From a virus: a stretch of DNA of 64,000 nt. The translations under genes and the position numbers were made by a program. This document shows positions 2,168 to 60,719 of the stretch, piece by piece. Numbering within the stretch: position 1 is the first letter of the stretch; the number at the start of each line of letters is the position of its first letter. A model generated the notes under the pieces. That model saw only the letters and a list, made by a program, of their open reading frames with translations. It was not told where the DNA came from and did not search any database. The stretch spans positions 31,981-95,980 of the IMG/VR virus record IMGVR_UViG_3300021373_002437; one strand, 5' to 3'.

Positions 2168-3620
2168 TTTTGTATGGTGGACTGGTGTTGTTGAAGATCG
2201 GGCTGACCCAGAAAAGATGGGTCGATATCGTGTTCGCATTTTAGGATTTCATACTGAGGACAGAACAGAGCTTCCTGTTTCTGATCTTCCGTGGGCTACT
2301 CCAATCATGCCTGTAAGTTCATCTAGCAACACTGGGGTTTGCGAGACTCCTTCTTTGGTCGAGGGTACTGCTGTAATTGGATTTTTTAGTGATGGTGTGG
2401 ATGAGCAACTACCCATTATAGTTGGCTCCATCCCCGGCATGCCGCAGCAGAAAATCGAAGACCCAAATGTGGGATTCTCAGACCCCACTGGAGAATATCC
2501 ACGTTACTTAAATGAACCAGACATATCTAAGCTGGCGCGTGATAGTGCTGCAGAAAACCATGAGTCTCTAATATCAAAAAGAGAAACCCGTATTGGCGTA
2601 GAAGGGCCTATAGTAACGGCTAAGGCCCCTTCGGTTTCTACCATGTTGCCTGACAAGTCTGGAAAAGATTATGATGGGGCTACTTGGGAAGAGCCACATC
2701 CAAGATTTGGTTCGACTGATCAAGGAACCTATACTGAGGCTGGTCAGGCCCCAACCTTTGATGAAGGAGTTACTTCTGTTTATCCTTTCAACCAAGTAAA
2801 AGAAACTGAGTCCGGTCATGTTTTTGAAACTGACAATACCCCAGCCAACGGAAGAATACACGAATATCATAATGCAGGAACCTTCAGAGAAATTCAGGCA
2901 GACGGCAAAAGAATTACTAAAGTTGTGGGTGCTGATTACGAGGTTATCCTAGAAGGTAAGAATGTTTATATCCAAGGTGGGTGTAACGTTAACATTGTTG
3001 GCGATTGTAAGATGCGGGTGGACGGTGATTTCTATCAAGAGATAGATGGAGATTATTTTATGACTGTAACTGGTGATCGCATCGCCAAAATCAATGGTAA
3101 TGATATTGCTGAGATAGGTACAGATCAGGGAATAAATATTAACGGTAATAGAACTTCTCGTGTGGGTGGAGACAACACAGATTCTATTGTGGGTACCGAC
3201 ATACGAACTATCGGCAAAGACAAGATTCTAACCGTCAACCAAAAACTACAAGAACAAATTAAAGGAAAGGCGTACAGGCTCGTGGAAAAATCAAGCAATG
3301 AAGTAGTACTCGGAGACCGTAATACCCTGTCTGGAGCAGGAATTTATTTTGGTGCTGATGGTATAATCAGTGCTAAATCTGGTGGAGATTTTAACATCAC
3401 TTCTGACGGCGCACATACGGTAACGGTTAACGGGGTACACACAATAGAAGCTGGTGGTGAGTCGTTCATCAACAACAACTTGACGGTTGACGGAACTATA
3501 GATGCGACTGGTGATGTATCTACTGATGCCGGTGCTGGTGTCACGTTGGCTACCCATACACATATCGGTTCACCAACAGCCGGTACAGGACCAATTTCTG
3601 ATACAGGAACACCTAAGTAA
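2157..3620 (+). CDS. 5: Baseplate hub/spike gp5 (OB fold plus beta-helix, no lysozyme domain seen)
   Basis: FVWWTGVVEDRADPEKMGRYRVRILGFH, DLPWA, YPFN.V.ETESGH..E.DNTP and VxG beta-helix repeats. ATG 2157 follows GGAG. Confidence 0.93.
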   Translation: MNPNFVWWTGVVEDRADPEKMGRYRVRILGFHTEDRTELPVSDLPWATPIMPVSSSSNTGVCETPSLVEGTAVIGFFSDGVDEQLPIIVGSIPGMPQQKIEDPNVGFSDPTGEYPRYLNEPDISKLARDSAAENHESLISKRETRIGVEGPIVTAKAPSVSTMLPDKSGKDYDGATWEEPHPRFGSTDQGTYTEAGQAPTFDEGVTSVYPFNQVKETESGHVFETDNTPANGRIHEYHNAGTFREIQADGKRITKVVGADYEVILEGKNVYIQGGCNVNIVGDCKMRVDGDFYQEIDGDYFMTVTGDRIAKINGNDIAEIGTDQGININGNRTSRVGGDNTDSIVGTDIRTIGKDKILTVNQKLQEQIKGKAYRLVEKSSNEVVLGDRNTLSGAGIYFGADGIISAKSGGDFNITSDGAHTVTVNGVHTIEAGGESFINNNLTVDGTIDATGDVSTDAGAGVTLATHTHIGSPTAGTGPISDTGTPK

Positions 3621-55498: not shown

Positions 55499-56446
55499 AT
55501 GGAAAAAGTCTTAGTTACTGGTGGCAATGGGTTCATCGGCAGACAAGTTGTATGGCATCTTTTCGAGGCAGGCTATGAGCCAGTTGTAATTGACTGGGAA
55601 AATAAGCTTGGTCTCCCTTCCTTCACTCTTTCCTTCGATGATCGAAATGTATTACAGATCATGAAGAATAATGGGATTAAGAAAGTCATACACTTGGCTG
55701 CAGATCACGAGGTTGGCAGGAGCATGGATGAACCGTCCGTGTACTACAACAACAACGTAGCAAGTTCTATTCGCTTTCTGGATATGTGTATTCAAGCAGG
55801 CGTAGAGCAGTTTATATTCAGCAGTTCTAGTAGCGTGTACGATGCATATTCGACTGACAATGGTGTATGCCTTGAGTACAGTAAACTCGGTGGAAGTTCT
55901 CCATATGCCAGAACTAAACAAATGTTTGAGCATATCTTGTTGGACTATGGTGCTGCGTATGGCATAAAAACGATTTCTCTCAGGTACTTCAATGCAGCGG
56001 GGGCTTCCCCCGACTTACTTCATGGGTACACACAGGAACCACCGACACACCTGTTCCCAGTCTTAGCCAAATGCTTTGTAGAAGATGCTCCTTTCACAAT
56101 TCATGGCGACGATTACGGGACAGAAGATGGTACCTGCATTAGAGACTACACCCACGTAGATGACATTGCAAGGGCTCATGTGTCTGCGCTTAATTATAGC
56201 GGTCCCCGTGGTGCGTTCAATTTGGGTATGGGTGAAGGATATTCGGTTCAAGAAATCATACAGGAATTTTGTGACTACACTGGGAAAGTTATTTCAGTGG
56301 AGGTTGGTCCTCGCAGACCGGGAGATGTACCCAAGCGAATCGCAAACTGGGGTCTTGCATATAACCTTCTTAACTGGAAACCGATGTGGACCCTGAAAGA
56401 TATGGTGATGCATGCGTATGAATGGGAAAAGCTTAGATGCAAGTAG
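55499..56446 (+). CDS. galE: UDP-glucose 4-epimerase
   Basis: VLVTGGNGFIG, HLAA, FSSS, YARTK (YxxxK), LRYFNAAGA, DGTCIRDY.HV.D, RR.GD. Confidence 0.9.
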   Translation: MEKVLVTGGNGFIGRQVVWHLFEAGYEPVVIDWENKLGLPSFTLSFDDRNVLQIMKNNGIKKVIHLAADHEVGRSMDEPSVYYNNNVASSIRFLDMCIQAGVEQFIFSSSSSVYDAYSTDNGVCLEYSKLGGSSPYARTKQMFEHILLDYGAAYGIKTISLRYFNAAGASPDLLHGYTQEPPTHLFPVLAKCFVEDAPFTIHGDDYGTEDGTCIRDYTHVDDIARAHVSALNYSGPRGAFNLGMGEGYSVQEIIQEFCDYTGKVISVEVGPRRPGDVPKRIANWGLAYNLLNWKPMWTLKDMVMHAYEWEKLRCK

Positions 56447-57495
56447 CTTGGATAACTGATTTACATTTCGGTGCTCGTAATGATCACCCCGTGTTCAATA
56501 AGCACATTGAAACTTTCTATACAGAAACTTTCTTTCCACACCTGCGCGAGAATGGAATCAAAGATATCTTCATGATGGGTGACACTTTTGAGCGCCGAAA
56601 GTATATCAACTTCCACACTCTTTACCAGTGCAGGAAATATTATTTCGATGTTGCTAGGGATGAAGGAATCAACATTCATATCATTCCGGGCAATCACGAT
56701 ACATATTTCAAGAACACCAATGAGGTTAACTCCCCTAGGCTGTTGTTGAATGAGTATGAGAATATTATCCAGTACCACCATGTGACAGATGTTAAGGTTG
56801 GAAACTCTACCTTCTGCTTTGTCCCATGGATTACAAAGGAAAATGAAGATGAGTTTGTTAAAGCGATTAAAGCCTCGACTGCAGACGTTTGCCTTGGACA
56901 TTTTGAATTCACGGGTTATAAGATGCATCGTGACACCATTAATCCTCATGGCATGGCTCCTAGTGTGGTCGATCATTTTCCTCTGGTTATTAGTGGTCAT
57001 TTCCACCATCGGCATTCTAAGGGCAATATTACATACATGGGAAACCCATATGAAATAACTTGGTCTGACTATGGTGATACCCGTGGGTTCGCAGTATTCG
57101 ATTGCGACACTAAGAAGATGGAGTATGTGAATAACCCAGTCAAGATTCATCACAAGGTCTACTACAATGACACTGAAGAGAGTCAACATGGTGACCCTAT
57201 GGAAACAGACTTCGAATCACTTAAGAACGGCTGTGTGAAAGTCTACGTGGAAAAGAAGTCAGACTTGAAGAAGTATGATAAGTTCATGGATAAGATTGAT
57301 GAGCAAGACCCGATTGATGTTAAGCCGGTTGAAGACTTGAGTGAAGAGTTTGAGCGTGGTGATGAACACATTGATGTTGAAGACACTATGACAATCCTCA
57401 AAGACTATGTTGATGAGATTGAGATTACTCTGAACAAGGATGAGATTAAGAATAGACTGCAGACTTTGCATATTGAGGCACTTGAAATACTATGA
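56437..57495 (+). CDS. 47: Recombination nuclease gp47 (Mre11-like)
   Basis: TDLHFG.R, GD.F.RRK, GNHD, GH.E, SGHFH, Y.GNPY. Confidence 0.96.
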   Translation: MQVAWITDLHFGARNDHPVFNKHIETFYTETFFPHLRENGIKDIFMMGDTFERRKYINFHTLYQCRKYYFDVARDEGINIHIIPGNHDTYFKNTNEVNSPRLLLNEYENIIQYHHVTDVKVGNSTFCFVPWITKENEDEFVKAIKASTADVCLGHFEFTGYKMHRDTINPHGMAPSVVDHFPLVISGHFHHRHSKGNITYMGNPYEITWSDYGDTRGFAVFDCDTKKMEYVNNPVKIHHKVYYNDTEESQHGDPMETDFESLKNGCVKVYVEKKSDLKKYDKFMDKIDEQDPIDVKPVEDLSEEFERGDEHIDVEDTMTILKDYVDEIEITLNKDEIKNRLQTLHIEALEIL

Positions 57496-57502
57496 TAAAT
57501 TT

Positions 57503-57685
57503 CCAGACAGTCACCCAAGAACTCTTGCTGGAGTTGAGGGTGGTTATCATTTGGACCATATTATAGAAGTGAGAATTGGGTTTGATTGGGGTATTCCCCC
57601 AGAAGAACTCAGTAAAATTGAAAATTTGAGAATACTTCCTTGGAGAGAAAATCTTGCGAGGAATAGGAGGGTAGAACCGTCATAG
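57503..57685 (+). pseudogene. HNH homing endonuclease C-terminal remnant between 47 and 46
   Basis: PDSHPRTLAGVEGGYHLDHII...GIPPEE..IENLRILPWREN; no proper in-frame start with SD. Confidence 0.7.
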
Positions 57686-59349
57686 CGTTTCAGGTAGTCC
57701 GATGGAAGAATTTTCTAGCGACAGGCAATGCGTTTACCGAGATTCGGCTGGATGATGCTCCAACGAAATTGATCTTTGGTAAGAATGGACATGGTAAATC
57801 CACGGTGTTGGATGCGATTACCTTTGCCCTTTTCAATAAGCCATTTAGGAATATCTCCAAGCCCCAGTTGGTCAACTCAGTCAACGGGAAGAAGGCTCTG
57901 GTTGAGATTGAGTTCAGTATTGGTAATAAGCATTACCTGATACGTCGAGGCATTCAGCCAAACGTATTTGATATTGTCATTGATGGTGAGAAGCTAGACC
58001 AGAATGCAAACGTGCGTGACTTCCAGAAGCACCTTGAGGAAAACATTCTCAAGCTGAACTACAAGTCATTCACACAGATTGTGATCTTGGGCAGTGCTAC
58101 CTTCACACCATTCATGCAGTTGACCACGGCTGTCCGTAGAGAAATTATTGAAGACCTACTGGACATACGAATCTTTACAGCTATGAAAGACGTATTGAAA
58201 CAGAAGACCACTATTATTAAAGAGAGGTTGGTCGAGGTTGATGCTGATCTTCGTCGTGTTGGTGAGGTCATGGAGGTAACTAATAAGTACATTGATGTAC
58301 TCAAAACTGACAAGTCGGAAAAAGCAGATCGGATAACCAGTGAAATAGAGACCTTGAAAAAATCTAGCAAGGAGACATTCAAGGAAATGAATGCTCTGAT
58401 TGAAGAGAAGGATGAGATTGGTGATGTTGTTGGTGAGAAACAAAAGCTAGAGACTTATAAAAATGAAGTGACTTTTAAGATAAACCAATTAAAGAAACAA
58501 ATAACTTTCTATGAGTCTAATAGTGAATGTCCAACATGTAAACAGCCCATTGATGAGGATTTTAAAAAGGGTGTATGTGATGAGCATAATGGTAAGCTGA
58601 CCACGATGCAGGCTGGTAGTGAAGGCATCAATAAAAAGCTTGATGAAATTAACGAGGCACATAAAAAGTATGTTGGGTTGTCCGAGAAGACTGGGGAACT
58701 CCAGACAATACTGAGAACCAACAAGACTCTGTTAGATCGCTTGGAAAACGAATTAAAGGAAGTGGAAAAGCTTTCTGGTAATATTGAAGAAGAAGAGGCG
58801 AAGGCAGCGAGTTTAGTAGAAGAGATTGCTGCCCACCAAGCGTTGAAAGATGAACTGACAGAAGAGCAGCATTACAATACTGCCATCGAATCCCTACTGA
58901 AAGACTCGGGGATTAAGACGAAAATAATTCGACAATATTTGCCGGTGATTAACAAGTTGGTGAATAAATACTTGACAGCCATGGACTTCTATGTAAACTT
59001 TGAACTAGATGAAACGTTCAAGGAAACAATCAAGTCCCGGCACCGAGATAAGTTTACCTATGCATCCTTTAGTGAGGGGCAGAAGCAAAGGATTGATTTG
59101 GCATTACTGTTTACTTGGAGAGATATAGCCAAGCTGAAGAACAGTGCCAGCACCAATCTACTAATGCTGGATGAGATTTTTGATAGTTCTCTGGATGATG
59201 ACGGTATTGATATTGTGAAGAAGCTGATTCATAAGGTCAGTGAAGATAACAATGTATTTGTAATAACACCTAAGCCAGATGACCTGTTTGACATGTTCAA
59301 GGAAGTCATTGAGTTTAGATTAAACGGAAACTATTCACAGAAGGTGTAA
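57679..59349 (+). CDS. 46: Recombination ATPase gp46 (Rad50-like); start codon anomalous
   Basis: V-IAFQVVRWKNFLATGN, GKNGHGKS (Walker A), CPTC zinc hook, FSEGQK signature, LDEIFD. The frame is open only from 57667 and has no ATG/GTG/TTG until 57769. Confidence 0.93.
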   Translation, partial: VIAFQVVRWKNFLATGNAFTEIRLDDAPTKLIFGKNGHGKSTVLDAITFALFNKPFRNISKPQLVNSVNGKKALVEIEFSIGNKHYLIRRGIQPNVFDIVIDGEKLDQNANVRDFQKHLEENILKLNYKSFTQIVILGSATFTPFMQLTTAVRREIIEDLLDIRIFTAMKDVLKQKTTIIKERLVEVDADLRRVGEVMEVTNKYIDVLKTDKSEKADRITSEIETLKKSSKETFKEMNALIEEKDEIGDVVGEKQKLETYKNEVTFKINQLKKQITFYESNSECPTCKQPIDEDFKKGVCDEHNGKLTTMQAGSEGINKKLDEINEAHKKYVGLSEKTGELQTILRTNKTLLDRLENELKEVEKLSGNIEEEEAKAASLVEEIAAHQALKDELTEEQHYNTAIESLLKDSGIKTKIIRQYLPVINKLVNKYLTAMDFYVNFELDETFKETIKSRHRDKFTYASFSEGQKQRIDLALLFTWRDIAKLKNSASTNLLMLDEIFDSSLDDDGIDIVKKLIHKVSEDNNVFVITPKPDDLFDMFKEVIEFRLNGNYSQKV

Positions 59350-59423: not shown

Positions 59424-59509
59424 GGGTAGGTATGCAAAATGGTTGAAGCAGGCAGACTGTAAATCTGTCCCGTAAGGCACTGTTGGTTCAAGTCCAGCCC
59501 TGCCCACCA
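59424..59509 (+). tRNA. tRNA-Tyr(GTA)
   Basis: GGGTAGG/CCTGCCC acceptor, GCAGA-CT GTA AA-TCTGT, long variable arm, TTCAAGT T-loop, A73, CCA. Confidence 0.95.
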
Positions 59510-59819: not shown

Positions 59820-60185
59820 ATGGATAGAGATAGAATCAAACTTTGTGCAGAAGTGCTGGAAGATGCCTGCCATGGAGCCGCTAAAAGTGCGGGCTGGTGG
59901 GACCGAGAAAAAACTTGGGAAACATTTCCTCGTTGTCTTACGTTGATTCATAGTGAAATCAGTGAAGCCATGGAGGGTGATCGCAAAGGGTTGATGGATG
60001 ACCACCTTCCAGACCGTCCAATGCGAGAAGTTGAATTGGCTGATGCTGCAATACGAATTTTTGATTTGGCTGGTGCATATGATCTTGATATCGGTGGTGC
60101 AATTGCCGACAAGCTAGCGTACAATGCTCAACGTGCAGATCATAAGAAGGAAAACCGTCAAGCTGCTGGTGGTAAAACGTATTAA
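59820..60185 (+). CDS. MazG-like nucleotide pyrophosphohydrolase
   Basis: LIHSEISEAMEG.RK, EVELADA.IRIFDLAG, K..YN..R. Confidence 0.8.
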   Translation: MDRDRIKLCAEVLEDACHGAAKSAGWWDREKTWETFPRCLTLIHSEISEAMEGDRKGLMDDHLPDRPMREVELADAAIRIFDLAGAYDLDIGGAIADKLAYNAQRADHKKENRQAAGGKTY

Positions 60186-60206: not shown

Positions 60207-60719
60207 ATGGAACTGATTCCTTTCAGCGACCCAATGCTGAAACACCCACCCAAACCGGTGGACTTTGAGAAAGACGATGTAGAAAAAATTAGTCAAGAAA
60301 TGATTCAATACATGAGTAAGGTTGGTGGTGCAGGATTGTCTGCCAATCAGGTTGGTGAAGACCTAGCCATGTTTGTCATGGGGGGCTTTGGTAACACACC
60401 AATTCGTGTAGTTGTGAATCCAAAATTACAATCAGTTTCAGAAACTCAGGTTCTTATGGAAGAAGGTTGTCTGTCTTATCCGGGCCTCAGACTCAAGCTT
60501 AAACGCTCAGATGCTTGCGCCCTTTCTTATCAAAATGAGAAGGGTGAAATGGTGGTGGAGAAGTTTGAGGGCGTCGAGGCTCGTGTTGTTCTTCATGAGT
60601 ACGATCATATGGTTGGACAGAACTTTACACAGCGAGCTTCACCGTTAAAAATCCAACGAGCCATGAAGAAGCTGGATAAGAAGGTCAAGAACTATAAGCG
60701 TATGAAGGGAATGGTATGA
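60207..60719 (+). CDS. def: Peptide deformylase
   Basis: GAGLSANQVG, EGCLS, HEYDH. Confidence 0.95.
   Translation: MELIPFSDPMLKHPPKPVDFEKDDVEKISQEMIQYMSKVGGAGLSANQVGEDLAMFVMGGFGNTPIRVVVNPKLQSVSETQVLMEEGCLSYPGLRLKLKRSDACALSYQNEKGEMVVEKFEGVEARVVLHEYDHMVGQNFTQRASPLKIQRAMKKLDKKVKNYKRMKGMV

Follow-up and report, generated by a model that had tools for sequence, protein, structure and literature searches.

How can a gene with a complete reading frame be expressed when that frame has no recognizable start codon? The question is raised by gene 46 (g46) of a marine T4-like cyanomyovirus known from IMG/VR record IMGVR_UViG_3300021373_002437 (95,980 bases, about 51% complete), of which a stretch of 64,000 nucleotides (nt), here called the window, was analysed. 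The g46 DNA best matches Synechococcus and Prochlorococcus phages, at 65-67% identity. In the window the N-terminus of g46 occurs twice behind gene 47 (g47), the two copies are separated by the remnant of an HNH endonuclease gene, and the second copy, which is in frame with the remainder of g46, has no canonical start. Comparison with other contigs and with related phages leads us to regard it as likely that the 5' end of g46 houses a truncated HNH cassette, and that gp46 arises by ordinary Shine-Dalgarno (SD)-directed initiation at AUA or GUC.

The features from g47 through g46 lie on the plus strand. Gene 47 (56437-57495), encoding an Mre11-like nuclease subunit of 352 amino acids (aa), ends with the TGA at 57493-57495; it matches the Pfam family Metallophos (E 3.8e-8) and its position is that of g47 in relatives. 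The first g46 copy (57492-57566) is a vestige of the original g46 start, whose ATG overlaps the g47 stop in an ATGA; it encodes MINFQ and then passes, in the wrong frame, into HNH-derived sequence, so that the reading is MINFQTV and then junk in frame 3, a junk open reading frame (ORF) of 24 codons that stops at the TAG at 57564-57566. The second copy begins at 57679 with GTC ATA GCG TTT CAG GTA GTC CGA TGG (VIAFQVVRW) and continues as g46 proper (57679-59349), an intact gene of 556 codons for the Rad50/SbcC-like ATPase subunit (Pfam SMC_N, AAA_23, AAA_29). Its product aligns end to end with those of five relatives, with 150+ invariant columns, and by Pfam and alignment the N-terminal strands, the Walker A motif and the SMC-type ABC ATPase head at both ends are all present. 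The g46 frame (frame 1) is open only from the TAG at 57664-57666, reading EGRT-VIAFQVVRWKNFLATGN..., and contains no ATG, GTG or TTG between that stop and the TTG at 57769-57771. This TTG, the first canonical in-frame start, is codon 31 and lies three codons before the Walker A motif GKNGHGKST, a position that is not credible as a start. Neither a second g46 nor a second HNH gene of the same family was found in the 96-kb record, itself about 51% complete.

Most of this anatomy had been described in an earlier note made from the letters alone, and it holds: the ATG at 57492 with MINFQTV and the stop at 57564 are as described, a second g46 N-terminus does lie in another frame behind a strong AGGAGG (part of AGGAGGG, 57665-57671), the sequence between the copies is indeed an HNH remnant (by phmmer, tblastn and 14 invariant columns), and TTG 57769 is the first canonical start, the 30 codons upstream of it being conserved. 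What did not survive was the cause that the note preferred, a change of G to C at 57681, which is weighed below.

Public contigs compared with the window over positions 57000-58400 establish the allele and reveal its uninterrupted counterpart. Two contigs of run X1 (2024), spanning 57336-58256, and one 2019-nt contig of run X2 (2018, a separate study), spanning 57000-57846, show 0 differences from the window, and GTC ATA (57679-57684) is present in both. Because X1 and X2 belong to different studies and carry identical sequence, sequencing error is excluded as the origin of the missing canonical start. A contig of run X3, from a third study, matches 57416-57507 exactly, continues with AAATAAA, and then matches 57702-57753 exactly; this empty-site allele is known from a single 151-nt contig at depth 2. 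It reads ATG ATA AAT TTC CAG AAA ATA AAA TGG AAG AAT TTT, or MINFQKIKWKNF, and in frame MINFQKIKWKNFLATGN, with g46 uninterrupted and the usual ATGA overlap with g47; copy 1 of the window is the same as this allele at 57492-57507, without a difference. The cassette remnant is therefore 194 nt long (57508-57701), takes the place of 7 nt (AAATAAA) in the uninterrupted allele, and varies by presence and absence between identical flanks in a natural population.

The remnant lies largely within the last ~62 codons of an HNH (mob-like) homing endonuclease (57497-57685, frame 2, stop TAG 57683-57685), in a frame other than that of copy 1. It corresponds to the last ~60 aa of HNH proteins of ~200 aa (phmmer, protein P0004, 75% identity, E 2.6e-20) and matches, by tblastn at 2e-12, proteins of T4-like Acinetobacter phages; the nearest full-length proteins are P0004, P0006 and P0011. 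The catalytic motif (GGYxLDHI ... NL..LPW..N) is retained at 14/14 invariant alignment columns. Only these last ~62 of ~200 residues are left, and promoter, start and N-terminal DNA-binding part are gone. Because it lacks the promoter and the DNA-binding part, and because copy 1 is in another frame, we regard the remnant as inactive and not as a working gene. At its left end, TTCCAGA is common to g46 codons 4-6 (TTC CAG A..) and to the HNH (N)-P-D codons (.. CCA GAC), and is a microhomology junction. The codons GAC AGT CAC, which hold the first of two GTC triplets (57510-57512) considered below, are HNH-derived and belong to the family motif P-D-x-H-P-R-T.

Two surveys place this structure among its relatives, the first of 90 g46 loci from IMG/VR and the second seeded with a profile of the HNH C-terminus. 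In the first, g47 and g46 overlap by ATGA in about 70% of loci, and codon 1 of g46 is ATG in 74 (with two more having ATG one codon upstream), TTG in 5 and GTG in 4; an ATGA-type overlap with a canonical start is, by this comparison, the ancestral state of g46. The only exceptions to a canonical start are the window and loci L009, L010/L011 and L087, all of which have extra DNA between g47 and g46. The arrangement of a vestigial N-terminus, an HNH sequence and a second N-terminus recurs in many other phage contigs, which indicates that the window's layout is not a chance feature.

Intact cassettes, which lie in IMG/VR contigs of other T4-like phages, share one order: g47 and copy 1 come first, then TATAAATA and an SD ahead of an HNH gene that encodes 190-215 aa, and last a complete g46, which GGAG(G) precedes with an 8-nt spacer. 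Their copy 1 consists of about 10 codons ending near W-K (for example MIQFNRVAWKN.., MITFEKVRWK.., MIHFSKVRWK.. and MIIFRYVKW..), followed by a few junk codons and a stop. The two g46 copies are 650-800 nt apart in intact cassettes, and cassette sizes overall run from 183 to about 800 nt. The motif TATAAATA is the T4 late-promoter consensus and stands 10-20 nt before the HNH SD in most intact cassettes (L110, L118, L119, L141, L150, L158), from which the nuclease is probably a late gene. Because the insertion point is constant, after g46 codon ~10, we infer that the cassette homes and that its nuclease cleaves cassette-free g46 site-specifically. Homologs of the HNH protein (~200 aa, C-terminal HNH, annotated as hypothetical) also occur between gp18 and gp19 in T4-like coliphages and Acinetobacter phages (L005, ECML-134; L006, Acj61), an interval that is likely to be another homing site of the family. 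The GenBank phage collection holds no isolate with this HNH gene next to g46.

Start codons in these cassettes are of a distinctive kind. Codon 1 of the complete g46 is ATT in L106, L107, L108, L112-115 and L116, ATC in L110/111, L118/120 and L121, and ATA in L126, and in all of these, as in L009 and L010/011, an ATT, ATC or ATA (ATH) codon follows GGAG(G) at the fixed 8-nt spacer. Different samples yielded several such alleles. In at least six of these lineages the stretch from the in-frame stop upstream to codon 1 is free of canonical codons, and there are several whose next canonical g46 codon lies past Walker A (codon 42 in L009, L110, L112 and L121). Dereplication at 90% identity left 100 g46 alleles, among which a non-canonical codon 1 is found in 11/16 linked to an HNH gene and in 2/84 of the others (Fisher p 2e-9); L116 is also HNH-linked and was missed by the search pattern, and with it ATT, ATC or ATA is found in 12/17 HNH-linked alleles. 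SD strength runs inversely to start-codon strength, the mean anti-SD duplex being -9.0 kcal/mol for ATH alleles, about -5.6 for GTG or TTG and -2.6 for ATG, where there is practically no SD. On the tree of HNH proteins the start class changes 2 times, compared with 5.8 with shuffled labels, and in the two ATG alleles nested among ATH alleles (L119 and L141) the SD has been lost. Fixed SD spacing together with this inverse relation would be the mark of real initiation sites, and is not expected for internal or untranslated codons.

The window conforms to this pattern. Its SD, AGGAGGG (57665-57671), places GGAGG at -13 to -9 of codon 1, that is, with an 8-nt spacer, a geometry found in 12 other loci, and its anti-SD duplex of -10.7 kcal/mol is the strongest of the set. 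Codon 1 of copy 2 is GTC (57679-57681), where homologous cassettes have ATC, ATT or ATA, and it is followed directly by ATA (57682-57684), a near-cognate candidate start 11 nt after GGAGG that overlaps the stop of the HNH frame (AUAG). Aligned on codon 1, the window reads GGAGGgtagaacc GTC ATA GCG TTT, compared with GGAGGgtaaaaca ATC ATA ATA TTC in L121, GGAGGgtgaaaaa ATC ATA ATT TTC in L118 and GGAGGgtaagccc ATT ATA GTC TTT in L108. By this alignment the window has the initiation region of the cassettes with a single difference, A to G at 57679 (ATC to GTC); the third-position C at 57681 is ancestral, since ATC or ATT stands there in relatives whose SD and spacer are the same. GTC at codon 1 is unique among the roughly 100 dereplicated alleles. 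The comparison with relatives, which the earlier note had proposed, thus shows the same layout and SD spacing with ATC, ATT or ATA as codon 1.

The SD itself may be foreign to this phage. GGAGG occurs at 52 sites on both strands of the 96-kb record, only 3 of which precede the canonical start of a long ORF by 4-11 nt, and g46 is the only long ORF without a canonical start behind a GGAGG in the record; such rarity fits a foreign, cassette-borne signal. Most genes of the phage have a weak SD or none.

Initiation at a non-canonical codon, one of the options listed in the earlier note, is thus backed by comparative data, namely ATT, ATC or ATA behind a strong SD in relatives. In the window a strong SD stands at a functional spacing, an in-frame stop lies 5 codons upstream, there is no canonical start before codon 31, and an SD with a non-canonical codon at the same spacing is found in 12 lineages, with SD strength inverse to that of the start codon. 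We propose that initiation with formylmethionyl-tRNA (fMet-tRNA) would take place at AUA 57682 (near-cognate, 11-nt spacer) or at GUC 57679 (the spacing of the family, two mismatches), giving M(I)AFQVVRWKNF... at a low rate that would be offset by the strongest SD of the family; the AUA and GUC products would differ by one residue. GUC combines a GUG-like first-position wobble with an AUC-like third-position mismatch. In E. coli, initiation at AUA, AUC and AUU reaches 1-2% of that at AUG (bioRxiv 10.1101/063800). As to which codon starts g46, we slightly favour AUA over GUC, and we infer that the amount of gp46 would suffice. The allele is found in both 2018 and 2024 with its 556-codon ORF intact, which speaks for its viability.

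Several considerations weigh against SD-directed initiation at AUA or GUC. We know of no natural GUC start, GUC mismatches AUG at two positions, and the AUA spacer is long, at 11 nt; the effect of the A-to-G change at 57679 may simply have been damage to the start. Either X1 or X2, though not both, is possibly the source sample of the record, so that only one of them is surely independent. No intact cassette from a close relative was found in scans of viral and metagenome contigs, the nearest g46 having 59-62% aa identity. This reading does not account for the retention of AUH in place of AUG by the cassette lineage, and a helix predicted in this region (see below) would occlude the start unless it were opened.

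The intact cassettes suggest how the window's arrangement came about. An intact cassette interrupts g46 after about codon 10, and the codons before the interruption persist as a vestige, coupled to the g47 stop as before; it brings in its own late promoter, SD and ~200-aa HNH gene; and its 3' end provides a new 5' end of g46, made up of a GGAG(G) SD, an 8-nt spacer, a weak AUU, AUC or AUA start and codons 2-10. A microhomology event at TTCCAGA would then have fused g46 codon 5/6 to HNH codon ~150, with loss of the promoter and of two thirds of the HNH gene, the DNA-binding portion, and the cassette-borne start ATC would later have mutated to GTC (A-to-G, 57679). Two routes could yield this structure: deletion within a resident intact cassette, or abortive homing repair, in which copying would proceed leftward from g46 until the end was joined by microhomology.

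Such decay is seen elsewhere in the family. L139 and L141 (IMGVR 3300008448_000723 and 3300027586_000358) form a natural pair from before and after such an event: L139 has the L141-type cassette but lacks 371 nt, with the ends joined at the microhomology ATATG; the deletion runs from copy 1 into the interior of the HNH gene and removes the promoter and the N-terminal half of that gene; their right flanks are 99.5% identical, the g47 side only 88%. L009 and L010 are further independent truncations with the three-part layout of the window. In L009 a vestige (GTG..IVFRLILWKN) and an 88-aa HNH C-terminal fragment are followed by an SD and a full g46 with an ATC/ATT-type codon 1, and in L010 the vestige is MLTFEKIRWQ, a 73-aa ORF includes its ten codons together with an HNH C-terminal fragment, and an SD and g46 with an ATC/ATT-type codon 1 follow. 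In L010 (positions 2959-3180) the vestige is fused in frame to the HNH fragment, and the 73-aa ORF would be translated from the original coupled start. The catalytic C-terminal domain is kept open in four independent truncated cassettes.

RNA folding predicts a long-range helix in the window, whose 5' arm (57472-57496) covers the end of g47, its stop and the AUG of copy 1, and whose 3' arm (57679-57703) covers g46 codons 1-9. The predicted helix is imperfect and has 23 bp, a duplex energy of -26 kcal/mol (z -3.3, reached by 0.3% of shuffles) and pair probabilities of 0.70-0.96 in contexts of 290-600 nt; C57681 is predicted to pair with the G of the copy-1 ATG, and a second short helix, of 57511-57516 with 57669-57675, would take up part of the SD. 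Such a helix would keep the g46 start closed until ribosomes finish g47, and ribosomes ending g47, as well as those on the junk ORF, would open the g46 initiation region. We hypothesize that it may restore the coupling of g46 to g47 that was lost through the insert. A search of 10 other cassette loci turned up no similar helix (z -0.9 to +1.6), and because of its absence there the predicted helix would be either chance or a lineage-specific adaptation. A broader proposal, which we advance tentatively and think rather less probable than otherwise, is that the HNH cassette family acts as a device, under selection, that sets expression and moves along with a selfish element, with g46 systematically started at AUU, AUC or AUA behind a strong SD, in the window at AUA or even GUC, and coupled anew to g47 by the helix in this phage.

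Of the other explanations for the missing start, the most serious is that the A-to-G change at 57679 killed a weak ATC start, so that gp46 is negligible and g46 is a hypomorph or a young pseudogene, the lineage surviving through a low need for gp46 or through co-infection. The uniqueness of GTC among about 100 dereplicated alleles and its two mismatches to AUG speak for this, and an intact ORF says little if the change is recent; yet the identical allele occurs in the 2018 and 2024 studies, all motifs of the 556-codon ORF are intact, AUA follows directly behind the strongest SD of the family, and g46 is a core gene of T4-like phages. We judge a crippled gene to be unlikely. Much less credible is a truncated gp46 from TTG 57769, which has in its favour that it is the first canonical start in frame, but which would lose 30 residues conserved in all relatives, begins 3 codons before Walker A and has no SD; we consider it very improbable. 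The cause preferred in the earlier note, a sequencing or assembly error or private mutation at 57681 by which GTG became GTC, would need one base change only and would restore an ordinary GTGA overlap, an overlap of a common type. However, the contigs of two studies have C at this position with 0 differences, the family state at the third position is C or T (ATC or ATT in homologous cassettes), and G would weaken the predicted helix from -26.0 to -22.2 kcal/mol; the change indicated by the relatives is A to G at 57679, and we give an error at 57681 next to no credence.

The note had also considered that the two copies might be joined at the level of translation or of RNA, and had called the join MINFQTVRW textbook; the natural uninterrupted allele (X3) instead reads MINFQKIKW. 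In ribosomal bypass, ribosomes starting at AUG 57492 would take off at GUC 57510-57512 and land at GUC 57697-57699, with the product MINFQTVRWKNF.... The take-off and landing codons match, the predicted helix would draw the two sites together, and T4 mobA with the gene 60 gap is reportedly a precedent for a bypass element tied to a homing endonuclease, as Bonocora et al. are said to have described in 2011. Nevertheless, the take-off codon is followed by ACC and not by a stop, which comes only at 57564, the nascent chain would be 7 aa long and the gap 187 nt compared with the 50 nt of gene 60, the codons that hold the first GUC derive from the HNH gene and belong to another frame, the natural allele has QKIKW and not QTVRW, copies in intact cassettes are 650-800 nt apart with copy 2 having its own SD at fixed spacing, and the helix is absent from 10 other cassette loci; bypass is thus scarcely to be believed. 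RNA-level excision, by which an intron or other processing would take out about 187 nt and join the copies, has in its favour that the ends of the copies are compatible and that group I introns with HNH genes occur in T4-like phages. No Rfam intron or ribozyme matches at E up to 10 within 56800-58400 (snoRNA noise only), the junction bases break the group I rule, by which U precedes the 5' splice site and the intron ends in G, a group I core would not fit into 187 nt, and the cassettes, at 183 to about 800 nt, hold a protein gene, promoter and SDs, not a conserved RNA core; the HNH origin of the first GUC and the reading of the X3 allele speak against excision as they do against bypass, and its probability is vanishingly small. 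Entry into g46 by a +1 or -1 frameshift, out of g47 or the HNH frame, was also considered and rejected, there being no slippery site and the distance from the HNH stop to codon 1 varying from -7 to +132 nt among loci.

The surroundings of the locus are as follows. An NAD-dependent sugar epimerase-like gene (55499-56446) lies directly upstream of g47, and downstream of g46 come tRNA-Tyr (59424-59509) and MazG-like and peptide deformylase-like genes (59820-60185 and 60207-60719). No initiator-like tRNA was found in the window, which has tRNA-Cys and tRNA-Tyr only. In other phages, too, the junction of g47 and g46 seems to be a general insertion hotspot: gaps of 178-699 nt occur in L016, L041, L051, L066-68, L071 and L088, and between the two genes of the cyanophage isolates Syn1 and S-RIM44 (L188/L189) lies a different, unrelated ORF of 90 aa, with overlapping starts of canonical type. 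In L087 (1389-1503) there is no HNH gene, and the 112-nt gap after g47 contains an intrinsic terminator and a TTGACA/TATAAT-like promoter; codon 1 of its g46 is ATC, 6 nt behind GGAGAG, and a TTG 7 codons upstream has no SD.

Recognition of these cassettes would matter first for annotation, because in all cassette phages gene callers will either split g46 or shorten it to begin just before Walker A or beyond it. To our knowledge, confirmed natural starts that are not AUG, GUG or UUG are very rare in bacteria, those confirmed in E. coli being infC and pcnB alone; at least 12 divergent phage lineages with AUH and a compensating SD would provide a natural series for the trade-off between start codon and SD, and if GUC is the codon used in the window, it would be a natural GUC initiation codon. 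The cassette would further represent a homing endonuclease that lives in an essential coding sequence without intron, intein or bypass, by a strategy in which the first ~10 codons are duplicated and a new initiation region is supplied, while the window, L009, L010 and L139 illustrate its decay by microhomology deletion. Because gp46 and gp47 are listed as possible players in the processing of homing breaks (PMC2988022), the element sits in a gene that may affect its own spread. Residence inside g46, a duplicated N-terminus and an AUU, AUC or AUA replacement start were not found described in PMC2988022 or in the further literature searched.

Among known systems, the closest are the mob-type free-standing HNH genes of T4-like phages (mobA-E), which belong to the same protein family, have their own TATAAATA late promoter and SD in the intact form (reviewed in PMC2988022), and resemble the cassette, as intronless homing does in general, in presence or absence between identical flanks and in decay to fragments. 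The g46 cassette differs from them in lying inside a coding sequence, after codon ~10, and not between genes, and in bringing a new 5' end that systematically has AUU, AUC or AUA with a strong SD. With T4 gene 60 and mobA it shares an insertion linked to a homing endonuclease in an essential gene of DNA metabolism that still works. Of the features of that system, however, only the matched GUC codons have a counterpart in the window, where the stop after take-off, the long nascent-peptide signal and the ~50-nt gap are lacking; copy 2 of g46 has its own ribosome-binding site, which points to duplication and re-initiation and not to hopping.

In nrdA of Aeromonas phage Aeh1, split by mobE ('genes in pieces'; Friedrich et al. 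2007, cited in PMC2988022), an HNH gene likewise lies inside a conserved gene, but there both halves are expressed and assemble, whereas the upstream piece of g46 is a vestige of 5-10 codons and the downstream copy is whole. The AUU starts of E. coli infC and pcnB are similar in being near-cognate AUH starts of low efficiency; in the cassettes, by contrast, AUH is the trait of a mobile element in at least 12 divergent phage lineages, always with a strong SD, and the window has GUC and then AUA. We know of no link between the AUH starts of the cassettes and the autoregulation of IF3. The long-distance pairing of MS2 coat and replicase offers a parallel for a helix that is opened only by upstream translation, here as a prediction for this window only. 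The element itself belongs to the mob-like free-standing HNH endonucleases, and the window carries a decayed copy of it with an additional change in the start codon.

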